A stretch of DNA of 46,555 bases. Source: a bacterium. Its GTDB lineage: Bacteria; Patescibacteriota; Minisyncoccia; Phycocordibacterales; UBA2100. The translations under genes were made by a program, and so were the position numbers. Each line of letters begins with the position of its first letter. Positions within the stretch are counted from its first letter, which is position 1. Positions 34,257 to 42,095 of this stretch are shown in pieces. The stretch covers positions 1-46,555 of the forward strand of contig JAYPJF010000003.1 in assembly GCA_038128225.1 (NCBI GenBank). The letters run 5' to 3'. A model generated the notes under the pieces. The model was not told where the DNA came from and searched no databases. It saw nothing but the letters and a program-made list of their open reading frames with translations.

Positions 34257-34982
34257 TTACAGACGCTCTCGTGTATCCGAAACTGCACTCGGGGTGTTCT
34301 TTTTAACCGTGCTTGTTGCCGCTTCGGTTAAATCTTCGATATTTGGAACAAGACCGCTTACATCCTCGATGGATTTAAATCCGGAGTACGCTTTATCATT
34401 GATAACCAGAACAGGTAATTGCGCGGGTACATTGTTGATTGTGGCGAGGGTTTCGAGCGCCGGGACACCGATATGGTAGTCGAACGAGTATATGCGCAGT
34501 TGCGGGTAGTCTTCAGAAAGTTTGGTGAGTACGTATCCCTGGCGTTCACAGTCAGGGCAATCATCTTGGTTTGAATAGAAGTAGAGAATAAACACAGGTT
34601 CTAGTTTGCATTTCTGCGCAACGCGGCGCATGAGGATCAGGTCTTTAATTTGTAAGAGAGTATATTGTCGTTTCAGCTGGAGCACTTCCTCGTTTTCGGT
34701 TCCTAGATTTTCTTCCGTGTATGCGAGGCGACGAGAAAGGTTTGCAAGCTCTCGTGACAGTACTGAATTCTCACGGATGTCTGTACAGGAAAGTTCTTGG
34801 AGGAGGTCAAATTGCGTCTCGAGCGACAAAATATCAATTGCAATATTATCTTGAATTGTGCGGATGTTTTCGATTCGCGCAGTATTGAGACGATCGCTAA
34901 TATACAACGCAGTCGCAAAGATCACAGCAGTAATTCCGAAAGCGATAAGGTAGCGAATCCAGGACATAGATGTTATCTCCAC
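34257..34982 (-). CDS. Membrane-anchored coiled-coil + thioredoxin-like (CxxC) protein
   Basis: TM, coiled region, ILYFYS...CPDC, LPVLVIN. Confidence 0.7.
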   Translation of the reverse strand: MEITSMSWIRYLIAFGITAVIFATALYISDRLNTARIENIRTIQDNIAIDILSLETQFDLLQELSCTDIRENSVLSRELANLSRRLAYTEENLGTENEEVLQLKRQYTLLQIKDLILMRRVAQKCKLEPVFILYFYSNQDDCPDCERQGYVLTKLSEDYPQLRIYSFDYHIGVPALETLATINNVPAQLPVLVINDKAYSGFKSIEDVSGLVPNIEDLTEAATSTVKKNTPSAVSDTRERL

Positions 34983-36190
34983 GGTGCCTGCACCCGCAGA
35001 AGTGCCCGCACCGCCGCATTACCAAGCCACCACGGCGCGATAAATGGGTAGAGGGTTATGTAGAGCGGAAGCGCCATAGGGTGGAGTCGTATGCGCGAGA
35101 TTGATTTTCCAATGTAAATGAGTGCAATAACAAGCGCCACCAAAATCACCGACATGATAGTGATCGAGCTTGTGTTAAAGAAAAAGAGTTCTGGAATATT
35201 TGGCCAGTGAAGGGCGAAGCCGACCGTTTCGATTTTAACGTACAGTGAAATTAGGCGTTCAATCGAAATGAATACGAACTGTGCAGTAAAAAATAATGCT
35301 GCGAAAATGGAAATGATGACTGAAGGGAGAATGATCACTCCGAGCGTTCCGTGCTTTCTATTGCCGATCATATGGCGGAAATCCCAAAAGTTCATAATAC
35401 CCCCGTAGGTCCATCGGGTGCGTTGCTTCAATAAACTCCGCAATGTGCGAGGCGCGCTTGTCATTACATGCACATCAGGAGCATTAATGATCCTCATGCC
35501 GCGCTCTTGCATACGCATGGCGATATCCATATCCTCTGTGCCGTGTGCATGGCGCCATCCGCCAAGCGAAACCACCGAGGAACGTCTAAAGAGCGAGAAC
35601 GGACCGGGGGTCACGAAAATTGATCCGGTCACATCAAAGGCGCGTCTAATAAATACCGAGAGTGCATACTCGGCCTGCTGAACACAGCCGAGTACCGTGT
35701 TTGGATAACTGACCATGATCGCGGGTGTAATCGCATCTGCGTTGCGAGTCTCGAGGTGTGTTATCGCGCGCACGAGCGCCTGCGGGTGAACAAATGAGTC
35801 CGCGTCAAGACAACCAACGATGTCTGCATGAGTGTGCGCGAGCGCGGCATTCATCGCGTTAAATTTCCCAGCATTTTTTTGATCGAGAATAGTGATCCTC
35901 GGTTCGTCTTTGAATGTTTGCAATACAGCGAGCGTTTGGTCGGTTGATCCATCGTTTACCGCAATGATCTGCACTTTGTTGTGTGGGTACACGAGCGCCA
36001 GAAGCGAATGCAGTGTTTTTGCGACCGTTGTTTCCTCGTTAAAGCAGGGGACGATGATTGCGACACTTGGGTAGGCACGCAATGCGTGAGTCGGTTTTTC
36101 TTTATACTCAAGAAATGCAAGCAAAAGAAAAATCTCCGTGTACAGAGCAATAAAAAGCAAAATATGGGTTGCCAACGTCATTAAATCCAT
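34973..36190 (-). CDS. GT2 processive glycosyltransferase (PgaC/IcaA/cellulose-synthase-like)
   Basis: IIVPCFNEE, NDGSTD, GKFNAMN, LDADS, TED, QRTRW, C-terminal TMs. Confidence 0.9.
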   Translation of the reverse strand: MDLMTLATHILLFIALYTEIFLLLAFLEYKEKPTHALRAYPSVAIIVPCFNEETTVAKTLHSLLALVYPHNKVQIIAVNDGSTDQTLAVLQTFKDEPRITILDQKNAGKFNAMNAALAHTHADIVGCLDADSFVHPQALVRAITHLETRNADAITPAIMVSYPNTVLGCVQQAEYALSVFIRRAFDVTGSIFVTPGPFSLFRRSSVVSLGGWRHAHGTEDMDIAMRMQERGMRIINAPDVHVMTSAPRTLRSLLKQRTRWTYGGIMNFWDFRHMIGNRKHGTLGVIILPSVIISIFAALFFTAQFVFISIERLISLYVKIETVGFALHWPNIPELFFFNTSSITIMSVILVALVIALIYIGKSISRIRLHPMALPLYITLYPFIAPWWLGNAAVRALLRVQAPWR

Positions 36191-36326: not shown

Positions 36327-37037
36327 ATGGCTCTGTATATACATCCACTAACGAGTGCGATTCGCGACATGGTGGCTATTTTTTCGGATATGGGGTTTTC
36401 AGTAGCAGACGGACCTGAACGTGAGGACGAATGGCACAATTTCACTGCACTCAATGTGCCGCAGGATCACCCGGCGCGTGACATGCAAGATACGTTTTGG
36501 CTCCCCGACGGGAAAGTGCTCCGCACACACACTTCACCGGTTCAAGTGCGCTTTATGGAAACGCATCAGCCGCCTATTAGGATTATTGTTCCGGGGAAGG
36601 CGTTTAGAAATGAGGCGACCGACATGACGCACGAAGCGCAATTTTATCAACTTGAAGGACTTGCTGTTGACACAGATGTCACGCTTGCGCATTTAAAAGG
36701 GACATTGCAGAGATTTTTTGGGGCTTTTTTCGGCGGTACGGTAGAGGTTCGTTTGCGGCCGAGTTTTTTCGGTTTTACCGAGCCTTCCGTAGAAGTCGAT
36801 ATGCGACTCACGAGCGAAAGCGCGCCGCCGAAATTAAAAGATAGATGGATTGAGGTTATGGGTGCCGGTATGGTGCATCCAAAAGTGCTTTCAAATAGCG
36901 GCGTGGATCCCCGCCGGTTTCAGGGTTTTGCATTCGGTGGTGGGATTGAGCGTTTGTGTATGCTTCGCTGGGGTATTGATGATATCCGTTTATTCCACAG
37001 TGGGGATGCGCGCCTCACTCGTCAATTCACTGTATGA
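36327..37037 (+). CDS. pheS: Phenylalanine-tRNA ligase alpha subunit (catalytic core only)
   Basis: HP, NFTALN..DHPARDMQDTF, LRTHTS, FYQLEG, FTEPS, GMVHP, GIERL; in-frame TAG at 36300 precludes an N-terminal extension. Confidence 0.96.
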   Translation: MALYIHPLTSAIRDMVAIFSDMGFSVADGPEREDEWHNFTALNVPQDHPARDMQDTFWLPDGKVLRTHTSPVQVRFMETHQPPIRIIVPGKAFRNEATDMTHEAQFYQLEGLAVDTDVTLAHLKGTLQRFFGAFFGGTVEVRLRPSFFGFTEPSVEVDMRLTSESAPPKLKDRWIEVMGAGMVHPKVLSNSGVDPRRFQGFAFGGGIERLCMLRWGIDDIRLFHSGDARLTRQFTV

Positions 37038-39424
37038 TGGTTAGCTACCAATGGCTTCAAACTTTTTTTGACGGGAAACTCCCCTCGCCGGAGAAAATTG
37101 CTGAAGCGCTTACTTTTGGTGCCTTCGAGATCGAAACGGTCGAAGAAAAAAACGACGACACGATTATTGATGTGAAGGTATTGCCCGATCGTGCCTGTTA
37201 CGCGCTTTCGCATCGCGGCATTGCAAAAGAGATCGCGACACTCTGCGATGTGCCAATCATGCGCGATCCGCTTGCAAAGAGTCGCCCGGAAATGCTGTTC
37301 ACTGATCGTATACATGTCGCCACTGACGAAAAGCGGTGTGCGTATTACAGTGCCGCGTTGATCGAAAATGTTTCTGTGGCACCTTCTCCTGATTGGCTTA
37401 GAAAGCAGCTTGAAGCAATTGGCCAGCGTTCCATCAACAACGTGGTGGACGCCACAAATTACGTTATGAACGAAATCGGTACGCCTTTGCACGCATTTGA
37501 TGCTGAAAAGATGGGCAACGGTATCGTGGTGCGCCCTGCGCACGAAGGAGAACGGATCACCATTTTGGGAGGCGAAGAAAAAGTGCTCACCGAGGCAATG
37601 ACAGTGATTGCCGATGGTACAAATGACGTGCCGCTCGCGATTGCTGGTGTAAAAGGCGGCGCGCGCGCAGAAGTTACCAACACTACGACAAGGGTCGTAC
37701 TCGAAGCAGCGACTTTCCATCCGACGGTTACCCGCAAAACCGCCCAGGTACTCAACTTGCGCACTGACGCATCGAAGCGATTTGAGAACGGCGTAAGCGC
37801 TGCGCTTCCTCTCTATGGGTTGGAAGCGTGCGCGACTCTGATTGCAGACATTGCTGGCGGGAAGTTGGCAGGTATTGCGGAAGCGGGTTCAGCGCATGTG
37901 GTTGCGTATAAACTTGGCGTTTCGGTTGCAGAAGTGAATCGATTGCTGGGGACAGCTCTAAACGAGAAAGAGGTGAGAGCGATTTTGACGCGGCTCGGTC
38001 TTTCGCATGAAAAAGTAGAAAATCCTCGCGAGCGACTGCTCGAAATTGCGAAAGAACAGCTTGGGAAACCATACAAATATGGTGCGAGTGTTTCAAAAGA
38101 TGCACCAGATCGTTTTGATTGCTCATCTTTTATTTCGTGGTCCGCTGCCCAAGTAGGAATTTCAATGCCGCGCATGGTAATAGATCAATGTTTATTTACA
38201 GAGACAATAGCCGCGAGCGCGGCGCTACCTGGGGACTTGATATTTGCAGTTAGTGATCCATTAAAACGAAAACCTTTTGTCTTCACTAAGCACGAAACAG
38301 GAGAGGAAGTCACTCATTTTAATCCAATGGAAGAGAGCCAGGAGTTTATGAAGGGCGCTCGTATCGAAGGTGGAGTAAGTCATGACGGAATCTACCTAGG
38401 AGACGGACTTGTTTTACATGCATCGAGTCAAAAAGGAGAAGTTATAATCGAGAATTATGAAACAAGTGGATCGTTTCAGCACATTGTTTCTTTCAATCGT
38501 TTTTTTGCGGTGAATCAAGAAAGGCTGGTAGTCACAGTGCCTCCAGAGCGCCTCGACCTGCGGATCCCCCAAGATCTTGTAGAAGAGATTGGGCGTGTGC
38601 ACGGATACGAACATATCGCACCAACAACGCTTCCTTCTGGGCGAACAACGATCATTTTCAATCAACGGCATCGAGTTATGGAAACGGTGCGCAAAACTCT
38701 CGAAGAGCTTGGATATATGGAAATCATGACTTACGCACTTATCGGGGAGGGTGAAGTGACACTTGCAAACTCGCTTGCACCAGAGCGGGCGCATTTACGT
38801 GCGTCGCTCGTGCCGGCAATGCAAGAGGCATTGGACAAAAATTATACAAACGCACCGCTTCTGGGAGGTGAGCCGCTGAAATTGTTTGAAATCGGCACCG
38901 TGTTTACACACGATAGCGAATTTTTGAGCCTCGCACTCGGTGTTCGGGCTGTAGGTAAAAGGGGCGAAGAAAAAATTAAAGCCTTACTCCAAGAGGCGCG
39001 ATCTGCTCTCGCGCTCTCGTTTGGCGTACACGAATCAGATATAGGCGCAGAGGTCAAAAATGGGATTCTTACCTGTGATTTAAGCTCATATGTTGATAGT
39101 GGCGTGGGTGGGTATCCAGAAACAGCACGAGTACAAGAAGTACAGTATCGGCCTCCGTCGGTGTTTCCATTTGTGCTTCGAGATGTCGCCCTGTGGGTTA
39201 CCGCTGCATCAGCGGATGAGGTTGCAGAAGTTATCCGAGGAGCAGCAGGGACGTTGTTAGCATCTCTCGAGCTGTTCGATACGTTCGCAAAAAATGAAAA
39301 AACATCGTTCGCGTACCACTTGGTATTTCAGTCGAATGAACGTACGCTCTCCGATAATGAGGTTTCAGAACAGATGACGCGAGTGGAATCCGCACTCAAA
39401 GCAAAAGGGTGGGAAATCCGATGA
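37034..39424 (+). CDS. pheT: Phenylalanine-tRNA ligase beta subunit with inserted NlpC/P60 domain
   Basis: SYQWL, SINNVVDATNY, PLHAFD, TDASKRFE, RLDL..PQDLVEEIGRVHGY, LFEIG, RDVAL...RTLSD; insert about 38012-38520. Confidence 0.95.
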   Translation: MMVSYQWLQTFFDGKLPSPEKIAEALTFGAFEIETVEEKNDDTIIDVKVLPDRACYALSHRGIAKEIATLCDVPIMRDPLAKSRPEMLFTDRIHVATDEKRCAYYSAALIENVSVAPSPDWLRKQLEAIGQRSINNVVDATNYVMNEIGTPLHAFDAEKMGNGIVVRPAHEGERITILGGEEKVLTEAMTVIADGTNDVPLAIAGVKGGARAEVTNTTTRVVLEAATFHPTVTRKTAQVLNLRTDASKRFENGVSAALPLYGLEACATLIADIAGGKLAGIAEAGSAHVVAYKLGVSVAEVNRLLGTALNEKEVRAILTRLGLSHEKVENPRERLLEIAKEQLGKPYKYGASVSKDAPDRFDCSSFISWSAAQVGISMPRMVIDQCLFTETIAASAALPGDLIFAVSDPLKRKPFVFTKHETGEEVTHFNPMEESQEFMKGARIEGGVSHDGIYLGDGLVLHASSQKGEVIIENYETSGSFQHIVSFNRFFAVNQERLVVTVPPERLDLRIPQDLVEEIGRVHGYEHIAPTTLPSGRTTIIFNQRHRVMETVRKTLEELGYMEIMTYALIGEGEVTLANSLAPERAHLRASLVPAMQEALDKNYTNAPLLGGEPLKLFEIGTVFTHDSEFLSLALGVRAVGKRGEEKIKALLQEARSALALSFGVHESDIGAEVKNGILTCDLSSYVDSGVGGYPETARVQEVQYRPPSVFPFVLRDVALWVTAASADEVAEVIRGAAGTLLASLELFDTFAKNEKTSFAYHLVFQSNERTLSDNEVSEQMTRVESALKAKGWEIR
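38012..38520 (+). other. NlpC/P60 (C40) cysteine-peptidase domain nested in pheT
   Basis: AKEQLGKPYKYGA, FDCSSF, ISMPR...DQ, PGDLIF, SHDGIYLGDG.VLHAS. Confidence 0.9.
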
Positions 39425-39974: not shown

Positions 39975-40079
39975 ATTCAATAACAGTCTGTAAATAAGGC
40001 TTTTTTGGCATCCATGCACTAGTATTGTGCCTGGAAAAATGCTAGTATGTAAGTGCGGGTTAGCCCGCCTTATTCTTTC

Positions 40080-42095
40080 ATGGCAAGCAAAAAAACAGGG
40101 TATACAGCAGAATCGATCACCGTACTTGAGGGTCTCGAGGCAGTGCGTCGTCGCCCGGGTATGTATATCGGAACCACGGGGCCTACAGGACTTCACCATC
40201 TTATTTGGGAAGTGTTTGATAACTCGCGTGACGAGGCGATGGGCGGATTTGCAAATGACATTGAAGTCGCGCTGCTTTCTGGGAATCGGGTGCGTGTTGC
40301 TGATAACGGCCGAGGCATTCCAGTTGAAATACACTCGAAAACGAAAGTCTCTGCTCTTGAAACGGTAATGACCGTACTTCACGCGGGGGGCAAATTTGGT
40401 GGTGAAGGATATAAAGTTTCAGGTGGACTACACGGCGTTGGTGTTTCAGTCGTTAATGCCCTTTCGACGCACGTACGAGCAGAAGTGCACCGTGACGGAG
40501 GCGCACATGAACAAGAGTACAAAAATGGGGGGAAGCCCGTTGCAAAAGTAAAAAGAATTTCCGCATCCGATCGCACCGGGACCATCATTACTTTTACACC
40601 AGATGCGAGTATTTTCCCTGAGATCGAATTTAAGTACGACACAATTGTTGAGCATCTGCGGCAGCAAGCGTACTTGGTGCGCGGCCTCCGCATCACGATT
40701 CTCGATATGCGCGCACTGCCTGACGTTGATGACACGAGCGAATATTATTTGCGTGACCTCGGACTTGATGCGCCCTCCACAACGTTTTACTTTGAGGGTG
40801 GTTTGAAGTCACTTATCGAATTTGAAAACCGGCACCTTGAAAAAATACATAAACACGTGTATTACGCTGAGCGCGAACAAGACGGGGTCACTGTTGAGGT
40901 GGCACTTCAGTATGTGGACGACATTTCCGCGCGCATTTCGGCGTTCGCGAATAACATCTACAACAGCGAAGGGGGCACGCATGTGACCGGTTTTAAAACC
41001 GCATTGACACGCACACTTAACAACTATGCGAAAAAAAGTAGCAACGCAAAAGATGGAGATGCATTCACGGGCGATGATGTTTTAGAAGGTCTCACGGCTG
41101 TCGTTTCTGTAAAACTGCGAGAGATTCAATTTGAAGGTCAGACTAAAGGAAAACTTGGTTCGGTTGAGGCGCGCGGTGCCGTGGAAACTGTATTCTCAGA
41201 GACATTTGCAGAATTTCTTGAAGAGAATCCTGATGACGCGCGCGCAGTTATCGCAAAAGCGGTGCTTGCGATGAAGGCGCGCAAAGCGGCGAAAGCCGCT
41301 AAAGATTCTGTACTGCGCAAAGGCGCACTTGAAGGCCTGTCACTTCCGGGAAAACTTGCTGACTGTCAGGTAAAAAATGCTGCGGAGGCAGAATTATTTA
41401 TCGTTGAGGGAGACTCCGCAGGTGGTACTGCAAAAGCAGGGCGTGATCGCCGTACGCAGGCGGTGTTGCCGCTTCGTGGGAAAATTCTCAATGTCGAGCG
41501 GGCACGCCTCGATAAAATGCTTAGCTCGGAACAGATTAAGAACCTTGTGGTAGCGCTTGGCACAGCGATCGGTGATGTATTTGATCTCGAAAAGTTACGC
41601 TACCACAAAATCATTATCGCAACTGATGCTGACGTAGATGGGGCACACATTCGGACGTTGCTTCTCACGCTGTTTTATCGCCATTTCCGCCCGGTGATCG
41701 ACGGGGGGTTTCTCTATATCGCCCAACCACCGCTCTATAAAATACGAAAAGGGAAAGAGATACTCTACGCCTTTACTGAGGAGGAAAAAGTTAAAATTGC
41801 GGGGAAAGCGGAACCAGTCGAAGTAGAAAGTGCCGAAGAGACAGTGGACGAAGAGAGTTTAGAGAAAGAGAAAAAAAGTAAGCTAACGGTGCAGCGCTAC
41901 AAGGGACTTGGTGAAATGAATGCTGAGGAGCTTAAAGAAACAACGATGGATACTGCAAACCGGATTTTGCAGCAGGTGACAATTGATGACGCACGCGAAG
42001 CGGATAAAACATTCGATATCTTAATGGGTACTGACGTTTCATCCCGTAAATCGTTTATTCAAGCACACGCAAAAGAAGCGCAGTTGGATGTATAA
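40080..42095 (+). CDS. gyrB: DNA gyrase subunit B (type II topoisomerase B subunit)
   Basis: LEGLEAVRRRPGMYIG, DNGRGIP, GGLHGVG, EGDSAGG, PLRGK, DADVDG, QRYKGLGEM. Confidence 0.95.
   Translation: MASKKTGYTAESITVLEGLEAVRRRPGMYIGTTGPTGLHHLIWEVFDNSRDEAMGGFANDIEVALLSGNRVRVADNGRGIPVEIHSKTKVSALETVMTVLHAGGKFGGEGYKVSGGLHGVGVSVVNALSTHVRAEVHRDGGAHEQEYKNGGKPVAKVKRISASDRTGTIITFTPDASIFPEIEFKYDTIVEHLRQQAYLVRGLRITILDMRALPDVDDTSEYYLRDLGLDAPSTTFYFEGGLKSLIEFENRHLEKIHKHVYYAEREQDGVTVEVALQYVDDISARISAFANNIYNSEGGTHVTGFKTALTRTLNNYAKKSSNAKDGDAFTGDDVLEGLTAVVSVKLREIQFEGQTKGKLGSVEARGAVETVFSETFAEFLEENPDDARAVIAKAVLAMKARKAAKAAKDSVLRKGALEGLSLPGKLADCQVKNAAEAELFIVEGDSAGGTAKAGRDRRTQAVLPLRGKILNVERARLDKMLSSEQIKNLVVALGTAIGDVFDLEKLRYHKIIIATDADVDGAHIRTLLLTLFYRHFRPVIDGGFLYIAQPPLYKIRKGKEILYAFTEEEKVKIAGKAEPVEVESAEETVDEESLEKEKKSKLTVQRYKGLGEMNAEELKETTMDTANRILQQVTIDDAREADKTFDILMGTDVSSRKSFIQAHAKEAQLDV

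Follow-up and report, generated by a model that had tools for sequence, protein, structure and literature searches.

A predicted NlpC/P60 peptidase nested in the B5 domain of a patescibacterial phenylalanyl-tRNA synthetase, found also in free form and paired with a C39_2-like gene

Few proteins are as conserved as the aminoacyl-tRNA synthetases, and we know of no papain-fold peptidase of the peptidoglycan type that is nested in one. Why, then, would an essential synthetase house such a domain? The question is raised by a 46,555-nucleotide stretch from a member of the Patescibacteriota (contig JAYPJF010000003.1 of assembly GCA_038128225.1; the whole stretch is called the window here), in which pheT, the gene for the beta subunit of phenylalanyl-tRNA synthetase (PheRS), was reported by an initial annotation to carry an NlpC/P60 peptidase domain inserted in its B5 domain. 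Neither an NlpC/P60 domain in PheRS nor such an insertion was found in the literature searched (subscription journals and supplements not covered). The genome assembly comprises 6 contigs with a total of 801,540 bp and is 100% complete, and genome-wide searches returned one B3_4/pheT match and one NlpC/P60 locus, both of which are the pheT frame at 37034-39424. The architecture, its conservation, the retention of its catalytic residues, the separability of the module from PheRS and its pairing with a second peptidase gene are directly supported by the comparisons that follow.

The list of open reading frames (ORFs) gives pheT as an uninterrupted frame of 796 codons (37034-39424, + strand), the start of which is overlapped by the stop codon of pheS directly upstream. 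Scanning with Pfam hidden Markov models detected B3_4, B5, tRNA_synthFbeta and FDX-ACB, with the B5 match (59 bits) falling in two stretches split around an insert that gave a strong NLPC_P60 match, also in two stretches (56.2 bits against a cut-off of 23, E = 3.9e-15; 62.5 bits summed in the genome-wide profile search). Weaker NCBIfam matches of the protein were to RipC, RipB, p60 and MepS-type endopeptidases. All motifs quoted in the initial annotation were found in place, namely LGKPYKYGA (343-351), FDCSSF (361-366), PGDLIF (399-404), SHDGIYLGDG (449-458) and VLHAS (460-464), and the pieces of B5 that flank them are ILTRLGLSH (317-325) and LVVTVPPERLDL (498-509). When PheT was aligned to its Thermus thermophilus (Tt) counterpart (2iy5_B), residue 326 corresponded to Tt 436 and residue 500 to Tt 444, and because these two positions flank the roughly 170 extra residues, the addition falls in one loop of B5. 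In the predicted structure, the N-terminal half of B5 consists of a strand (292-296), two helices (298-305 and 311-320) and a second strand (324-328).

The same scan found no tRNA_bind (B2) match in PheT, and residue 41 aligns to Tt 152. Against TIGR00472 (pheT_bact; NCBIfam) the protein scored 382.7 bits, under the equivalog cut-off of 402.65, a shortfall that fits the absence of B2 and the splitting of B5. Insert-less relatives found with this B2-less query lie in frames of about 640 residues, too short for B2, and PheTs from other classes of the phylum (L012 and L013) retain it. PheRS appears to be minimised overall, with PheS reduced to the catalytic core and PheT lacking B2.

A 5223-nt contig from a run of another study (X5) spans 36900-39327 with 12 substitutions and no gaps, and this independent assembly bridges both junctions of the insert. 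A contig from X3 is identical to the window, but X3 may be the source sample; contig pieces from X4 tile pheT.

To predict the fold, an AlphaFold2 model of the whole PheT was built on 149 sequences and gave a mean predicted local distance difference test (pLDDT) of 94.9 and a predicted template modelling (TM) score of 0.83, with the lowest pLDDT, 68-73, at residues 411-430. Foldseek against the Protein Data Bank ranked PheRS beta chains first (E ~1e-47), and the insert matched the catalytic domains of Clostridioides difficile autolysins (7cfl_A and 9ubf_B) with a TM score of 0.87 by target length. Within the model, C363 starts a helix (363-373), H450 lies in a strand (450-456) and H462 lies in the strand at 459-464, and all three align to the equivalent residues of 7cfl_A and 4xcm_A. 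By sequence, the closest solved relatives were 7cfl_A (1.1e-12), 4xcm_A, RipC, CwlO, LytE and MepS, and the alignment shows that the family motifs GxPYxxGA, DCS, PR..Q, GDLxF and HxGxY are retained. The segment between PGDLIF and the His450 strand (406-445) is a loop that ranges from about 0 to 40 residues across relatives, with a mean pairwise identity of 31%. We conclude that the insert is, by alignment and predicted structure, a canonical p60-type member of the NlpC/P60 family with a papain-like alpha+beta fold.

A search with the insert region returned 25 PheT-length proteins, including the cluster of the query itself, all of which have the same five Pfam domains; the other 24 are 35-58% identical to the query across the insert, and some are labelled by their source as Zambryskibacteria, Paceibacterota or Patescibacteria. 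A full HMMER scan of 1.84 billion cluster representatives contributed many further sequences. A PheT alignment of 168 sequences was made from the query and all that were retrieved, with P0002 (the query minus Met1) dropped. In this set, which is biased in that it holds the best matches to an insert-bearing query, 115 of the 168 PheTs have an insert of 120-180 residues at the same site, 53 have 0-6 residues there and none is intermediate. The nucleophile is Ser in 2 of the 115 inserts and Cys in the other 113; His450 is replaced once, by Leu (His in 114); the third residue is His in 109 and Y, N, D or Q in 6; and Asp401 is retained in all 115. The NlpC/P60 core had a mean pairwise identity of 45%, close to the 46% of B3/4 and above the values of the PheT core (40%) and B6/7 (30%), and the C-terminal half of B5 was the most conserved segment at 59%. 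The X5 strain variant has 4 substitutions in the insert, all synonymous, and 8 in the rest of pheT, of which 4 are synonymous. We conclude that the insert is, on the pattern of residue retention, an old and selected feature.

The G+C content of the insert (38021-38509) is 42.9%, against 51.9% and 49.8% in the pheT flanks and 49.6% in the window, and may stem from amino-acid composition. The low value was not read as a sign of recent transfer, given the age of the insertion.

The distribution of the insert was followed at three depths. Among 41 close relatives, a match over the full length (1-796) was found in 10 (G000, G001, G007, G008, G010, G015, G017, G023, G025 and G038, with that of G007 split over two contigs). 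PheT was matched in two pieces (approximately 1-325 and 495-796) in another 27, in intact frames of about 590-715 residues; G027 and G037 matched in the FDX-ACB part only, in frames of about 385 residues, and the remaining 2 gave no match. The pattern of presence was coherent within genera. At the level of the order, the insert was matched in 85 of 301 evenly sampled genomes (72 of 271 of high quality and 65 of 190 genera), and 72 of the 85 matches lie in frames of at least 650 residues; two of the others, G272 and G273, seem to be truncated where the contig stops. Across the phylum, 401 evenly sampled genomes gave 9 matches (E <= 1e-8), including G000 and G025, and 5 of the 9 lie in frames of 941-955 residues. 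Two of these long frames were read; each is a PheT that retains B2 (tRNA_bind) and has its B5 split at the same position by NLPC_P60.

On a tree of the PheT core (168 sequences, insert columns removed, midpoint root, many low supports), insert-bearing and insert-less PheTs interleave, and the insert state requires 24 parsimony changes compared with 45.1 +/- 2.5 when states were shuffled (minimum 36 in 500 shuffles). This interleaving speaks against a single clean origin. We conclude that the insert is apparently heritable and was lost many times, with gain less likely; tree error may contribute, and we claim no direction for any one event. A complementary distribution, in which a free NlpC/P60 protein replaces the insert, was not seen among the 31 insert-less close relatives: weak NlpC/P60 matches occurred in 3 (G005, which clears the cut-off at 25.2 bits, and G035 and G037, which fall below it), and the other 28 had none. 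A search among shorter homologues for a donor NlpC/P60 protein identified none, as the four top matches, at 40-43% identity, proved to be B5-flanked modules or fragments as well, and the next best are ordinary lipoprotein-type enzymes of 156 residues with about 30% identity.

Homologous modules were also found outside PheT. In family f67, none of the four genomes (99-100% complete) has a B3_4 match, and the loci read (G090, G187 and G257) encode a 382-residue enzyme made of a PheS core and a C-terminal FDX-ACB domain. The frames of these monomeric PheRSs are L004 3738-4886 (-), L005 1779-2927 (+) and L009 1437-2585 (+), and no description of a monomeric PheRS in Patescibacteria was found in the same literature. 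The end of the PheRS gene is overlapped or abutted by a gene for a protein of 198-226 residues, followed by a gyrB-like ORF (by eye). Two copies of the short protein were scanned and matched NLPC_P60 at 60-61 bits, and the G257 copy aligns to residues 292-522 of the window PheT (P0001), that is, to the whole of B5 plus the insert. We conclude that the f67 locus, by gene order and alignment, keeps the synteny seen in the window, with only the module left in the place of PheT.

Other genomes hold the module elsewhere. G133 has an insert-less PheT (657-residue frame), and a separate contig carries a 400-residue fusion (L008 2175-3377, -) that aligns to P0001 292-528 and runs on into a Peptidase_C39_2 domain. 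Around the fusion (L008 1463-6360) are genes for CAP, Glycos_transf_4 (MraY-like), a Peptidase_S11 D-Ala-D-Ala carboxypeptidase and DUF218. G288 has a free module in another neighbourhood and no B3_4 match in a genome that is 94% complete. In G041, the free module (L011 1977-2639, +) is a paralogue beside an insert-bearing PheT, and three metagenomic proteins of 187-199 residues have the same B5::NlpC/P60 build. On a tree of the module, in which the outgroup was not monophyletic and rooting is uncertain, free modules fall among PheT inserts at several places. We conclude that the B5::NlpC/P60 unit is, from the forms in which it recurs, separable from PheRS.

Small-frame free NlpC/P60 matches were also seen in G205, G068 and G158 of the order sample, and G211 and G249 likewise gave matches in small frames. 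Free proteins of about 220 residues with B5-like flanks coexist with PheT in the same genome in G041 and in G068 and G205, where the PheT frames are 666-693 residues; of these, only the G041 copy was read, and it groups with the inserts of B2-containing PheTs on the module tree.

A gene absent from the initial annotation was found immediately downstream of pheT, an ORF for 182 residues that begins one base past the pheT stop codon. The protein had no Pfam match, even at E = 10, and PF13529 (Peptidase_C39_2) matched 8 of 8 homologues outside its own cluster; in the protein Atlas, its top clusters were C39_2 with a score of 0.97. Q8, C22, H135 and D151 are invariant in nine sequences of the family, together with a GW.HD..LAHNHGVPAYREEF motif. 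The model of the protein (pLDDT 94.6) matched C39 domains, the C39-like 3erv, the primitive phytochelatin synthase Alr0975 and the pseudomurein endoisopeptidase PeiR in Foldseek, with TM scores of about 0.6 by query length. A second Peptidase_C39_2 match in the genome (G000:C1:285792-286103, +; 24.9 bits) lies within a 753-residue frame.

The partner gene follows the module. It was detected in 6 of the 41 close relatives; these 6 all bear the insert and have the gene immediately after pheT. A profile search found it in 68 of the 301 order genomes. Insert and partner occur together in 53 genomes, 32 have just the insert, 15 have just C39_2 and 201 lack the two; shared ancestry inflates the odds ratio of 22. 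In 48 of the 53, the C39_2 gene is downstream of the insert on the same strand and within 2.5 kb. The pairing extends to the free module of G257 (PF13529 at 46.1 bits) and becomes a fusion in G133 (43.9 bits). Complex prediction for PheT residues 283-530 with the 182-residue protein scored 0.00, which is no evidence either way.

What might the two proteins do? We favor, with a probability of about 0.45 for the statement as a whole, a cytoplasmic two-peptidase module that acts on wall-derived gamma-D-glutamyl peptides and is carried by PheRS. That the insert is real, selected and catalytically competent is very probable from its conservation, and it is probable that it forms an autonomous module with the C39_2 partner; enzymatic activity, cytoplasmic location, the substrate and the cooperation of both peptidases are what we infer beyond this. 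PheT would host a complete p60-type NlpC/P60 hydrolase in a surface loop of B5. B5 and NlpC/P60 together would be self-contained, would take no part in aminoacylation or editing, and would cooperate with the C39_2-like peptidase encoded immediately downstream, with PheRS as an always-expressed cytoplasmic carrier. In the cytoplasm, Cys363 would attack the amide bond between gamma-D-glutamate and the diamino acid in stem peptides derived from peptidoglycan, and the second peptidase would trim the products. The purpose would be to turn over or salvage wall peptides in a bacterium with Mur ligases and without a recognisable route to D-Glu or meso-diaminopimelate (DAP).

Consistent with a cytoplasmic location, hydropathy showed no signal-peptide-like N-terminus in PheT, PheS or the 182-residue protein, and none was seen by eye in the free modules or the G133 fusion. 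The genome has three Mur-ligase ORFs and two M23 peptidases that could serve wall growth, and the genome-wide profile search found no Asp_Glu_race (glutamate racemase), DAP_epimerase or Aminotran_4 (class IV aminotransferase) match. Muropeptide processing was one of several roles listed by the initial annotation and would fit best among them. Its broader claim, that an essential synthetase has gained a probably active thiol hydrolase, is supported insofar as a probably active domain is nested in B5 of a single-copy PheT, and is unsupported or incomplete in treating the domain as a new property of the synthetase. None of the refuting conditions that it set was borne out: the NlpC/P60 match is strong, both junctions are bridged by an independent assembly, and the catalytic residues are retained in relatives.

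Several observations weigh against the reading that we favor. The same genome-wide search found no Amidase_2 or Peptidase_S66 recycling enzyme. The presence of glutamate racemase does not follow that of the insert (1 of 10 close relatives with the insert compared with 7 of 31 without), and a link to D-Glu supply was dropped, as Asp_Glu_race does not separate the two groups (n = 41). Most relatives lack the insert and 28 of the 31 insert-less close relatives lack any NlpC/P60 protein, so its function is dispensable in the clade, and 32 of 85 module-bearing genomes have no C39_2 match. Translational coupling of the freed f67 module to the PheRS gene persists, and no freed form has lost either half of B5, which could mean a lasting tie to PheRS or tRNA. 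Finally, the assignment of a substrate draws on family resemblance and on the neighbourhood in one genome, G133.

The alternative that survives best, though we consider it unlikely, is that the two proteins are an active pair of cytoplasmic cysteine amidases whose substrate is not derived from peptidoglycan and is, for instance, a glutathione-like thiol, a poly-gamma-glutamate-like polymer or a protein or peptide conjugate. Among the structural neighbours of the partner is Alr0975, which forms an acyl-enzyme with glutathione (2bu3 and 6tho), and the partner also resembles the papain-fold proteins CtaG and PeiR, which form or cleave amides. The missing recycling enzymes and the dispensability of the insert in most relatives would likewise be compatible with a substrate other than the wall. 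However, the insert retains the motifs of DL-endopeptidases, its nearest solved relatives are peptidoglycan hydrolases, and the one relocated copy, in G133, sits amid cell-wall genes.

Less likely still, the domain could serve the synthetase itself, either as a thiol hydrolase or transferase on aminoacyl- or peptidyl-tRNA, which would add to or replace editing, or by transferring Phe to an amine through a Cys thioester. Such a role would be consistent with the embedding of the sole NlpC/P60 domain of the genome in PheRS, with the f67 module that stays at the end of the PheRS gene after loss of the beta subunit and B3/4, and with the B5 halves retained in every freed form; the NlpC/P60 superfamily, moreover, includes LRAT-like acyltransferases. 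The motifs of the insert are, however, those of peptidoglycan endopeptidases and not LRAT-like, and most relatives do without it. PheT residues R132, T141, N142, H153, E224, T244 and A246 align with Tt R240, T249, N250, H261, E334, T354 and A356, which we take to be the editing-site residues of T. thermophilus PheRS, and the canonical B3/4 editing site thus looks intact in the alignment. Because the editing residues are intact, the module persists where the rest of PheT is gone, and the G133 unit lies away from pheS and pheT in a cell-wall neighbourhood and fused to its partner, the evidence points away from a synthetase-linked role, including the editing and self-processing that the initial annotation had entertained.

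In a related and slightly less probable scheme, the making of Phe-tRNA and the chemistry of cell-wall peptides would be physically linked: with B5 anchoring the module to PheRS or to tRNA, Cys363 would accept an acyl group (a wall peptide, or Phe from Phe-tRNAPhe), form a thioester with it and then hydrolyse or transfer it. That scheme would explain why the module stayed at the PheRS gene after the beta subunit and B3/4 were lost.

We consider it improbable that PheRS, or a module released from it, moonlights at the cell surface or on a host and lyses the wall of the host or of the bacterium itself. NlpC/P60 enzymes are typically extracellular, the Candidate Phyla Radiation (CPR) lineage is thought to live attached to hosts, and this is the only NlpC/P60 domain that the genome has. 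The proteins nevertheless lack signal-like N-termini, two M23 peptidases are available for wall cleavage, and a heterotetrameric synthetase is an unlikely secreted enzyme.

It is more improbable again that the insert has no catalytic role and is either a passenger that PheT tolerates or an appendage of purely structural or regulatory use. The 24 state changes on the PheT core tree, with many losses, and the absence of the insert from 216 of 301 order genomes would suit a passenger, as would the rare replacements of Cys (2/115), His450 (1/115) and the third residue (6/115). The catalytic residues are nonetheless retained in 95-98% of the 115 diverged sequences, conservation of the insert equals that of B3/4, its substitutions within the species are synonymous, and the module survives alone in several architectures. 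An assembly or annotation artefact, whether a chimeric contig or mis-joined genes, is refuted by the X5 contig that bridges the whole gene independently, by the same architecture in 114 other PheTs and by the 72 frames of at least 650 residues among the 301 order genomes.

The same module thus occurs in four natural states, within PheT, beside a monomeric PheRS, elsewhere in the genome and fused to its partner peptidase, which offers a natural comparison for asking why an essential protein should house an enzyme. Should wall peptides be the substrate, the module would point to a route by which those ultra-small CPR bacteria with Mur ligases and without recognisable synthesis of D-Glu or DAP salvage or turn over such peptides; a substrate linked to tRNA would mean a new thiol-based quality control, editing or transfer activity. 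There is also a practical consequence for annotation. One relative is named "beta subunit-related protein" by its public source and others are named "hypothetical protein," and the former label, when assigned automatically, could be misread as a missing pheT.

The features of the locus are collected in Table 1. Upstream of pheS in the window is a gene for a family-2 glycosyltransferase of 405 residues (34973-36190, -). In f67 loci L004 and L009, a membrane protein (glycosyltransferase by eye, no scan) is encoded upstream of pheS with an ORF of 286-291 residues in between, and the pheS neighbourhood looks syntenic over long distances when the window is compared with these two loci. Downstream, a long ORF occupies the position of gyrB in loci L004, L005, L009 and L013 (gyrB by eye, no domain scan).

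Table 1. Coordinates of the genes, domains and predicted catalytic residues at the PheRS locus of the window
Feature	Position	Strand	Basis
pheS, short alpha subunit, 236 residues, catalytic core only	36327..37037	+	Pfam tRNA-synt_2d, 298 bits, residues 5-234
pheT, PheRS beta subunit, 796 residues, with NlpC/P60 insert and without B2	37034..39424	+	Pfam and alignment to T. thermophilus PheT
B3/4 editing domain, residues 102-275	37337..37858	+	Pfam B3_4, 193 bits
B5 domain, N-terminal half, ~residues 286-328	37889..38017	+	Pfam B5, alignment to T. thermophilus PheT, model
NlpC/P60 (MEROPS C40, p60-type) cysteine hydrolase domain, ~residues 329-496	38018..38521	+	Pfam NLPC_P60, 56.2 bits
Predicted catalytic Cys363, codon TGC	38120..38122	+	Cys in 113/115 insert-bearing PheTs
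Variable loop of NlpC/P60, residues 406-445, from PGDLIF to the His450 strand	38249..38368	+	Alignment
Predicted catalytic His450, codon CAT	38381..38383	+	His in 114/115
Predicted third catalytic residue His462, codon CAT	38417..38419	+	His in 109/115
B5 domain, C-terminal half, ~residues 497-527	38522..38614	+	Pfam B5, residues 493-525 = profile 35-67
B6/B7 catalytic-like module, ~residues 530-700	38621..39133	+	Pfam tRNA_synthFbeta, residues 530-627
B8 / FDX-ACB anticodon-binding domain, residues 709-796	39158..39421	+	Pfam FDX-ACB, 63 bits
Predicted papain-fold Peptidase_C39_2-like cysteine peptidase, 182 residues	39426..39974	+	Homologues, Atlas clusters, fold
gyrB, conserved downstream neighbour and synteny anchor (context only)	40053..42095	+	Pfam DNA_gyraseB, Toprim, HATPase_c

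How does the locus compare with known systems? The component families are known; what is new, as far as can be told, is the architecture, together with the gene pairing and the fact that the module can be separated from PheRS. Like the window PheT, that of T. thermophilus (1PYS/2IY5 chain B) has the order B1, B3/4, B5, B6/7 and B8, a pheS-pheT operon and the editing residues; unlike it, the T. thermophilus protein has B2 and lacks the roughly 170 residues of NlpC/P60 between Tt 436 and 444. The enzymes of f67 resemble the mitochondrial-type monomeric PheRS (human FARS2; 3cmq and 3tup) in joining a PheS core to a C-terminal FDX-ACB domain and differ in being bacterial and in being followed by a freed B5::NlpC/P60 gene. 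Hydrolases nested in a synthetase polypeptide are familiar from the CP1 editing domains of class I enzymes and from B3/4 of PheRS itself. Their target is mischarged tRNA and none of them is a papain-fold thiol enzyme, whereas the insert belongs to a peptidoglycan peptidase family and still looks functional when detached.

Nearest to the insert in both sequence and fold are the secreted NlpC/P60 DL-endopeptidases (Acd24020 of C. difficile [7cfl], 4xcm of T. thermophilus, RipC, CwlO, LytE and MepS/Spr), which have the same Cys-His-His triad and surrounding motifs. They are exported proteins or lipoproteins with LysM, SH3b or coiled-coil partners, in contrast to the insert, which has an extra SVSK-type insertion before DCS and the variable loop of 0-40 residues before the His strand. 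The 182-residue partner shares its fold and Gln-Cys-His-Asp residues with C39_2 and C39-like proteins (3erv of Bacillus anthracis, the peptidase domains of PCAT1 and ComA, Alr0975 and PeiR) and differs from them in having no attached transporter, no Pfam match and the family-specific GW.HD..LAHNHGVPAYREEF motif.

For the activity that we propose, the closest counterpart is YkfC, which is reported to be a cytoplasmic NlpC/P60 peptidase that cleaves peptidoglycan-derived peptides (PMC2954226), with a chlamydial YkfC acting on such peptides in the cytoplasm of a bacterium with a reduced genome (PMC9928106). The SH3b domains of YkfC are described there as shaping its specificity (PMC2954226, PMC4600125). 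In YkfC-type enzymes the SH3b domains select for a free N-terminal L-Ala, and Pfam found no SH3b match in PheT. YkfC and the PheT insert are alike in being (for the insert, by prediction) NlpC/P60 cysteine peptidases without an export signal, and they differ in that the insert has the B5 domain of PheRS as its accessory domain and a synthetase as its host. The resemblance is, by analogy, a functional one between cytoplasmic NlpC/P60 enzymes and not one of family membership.

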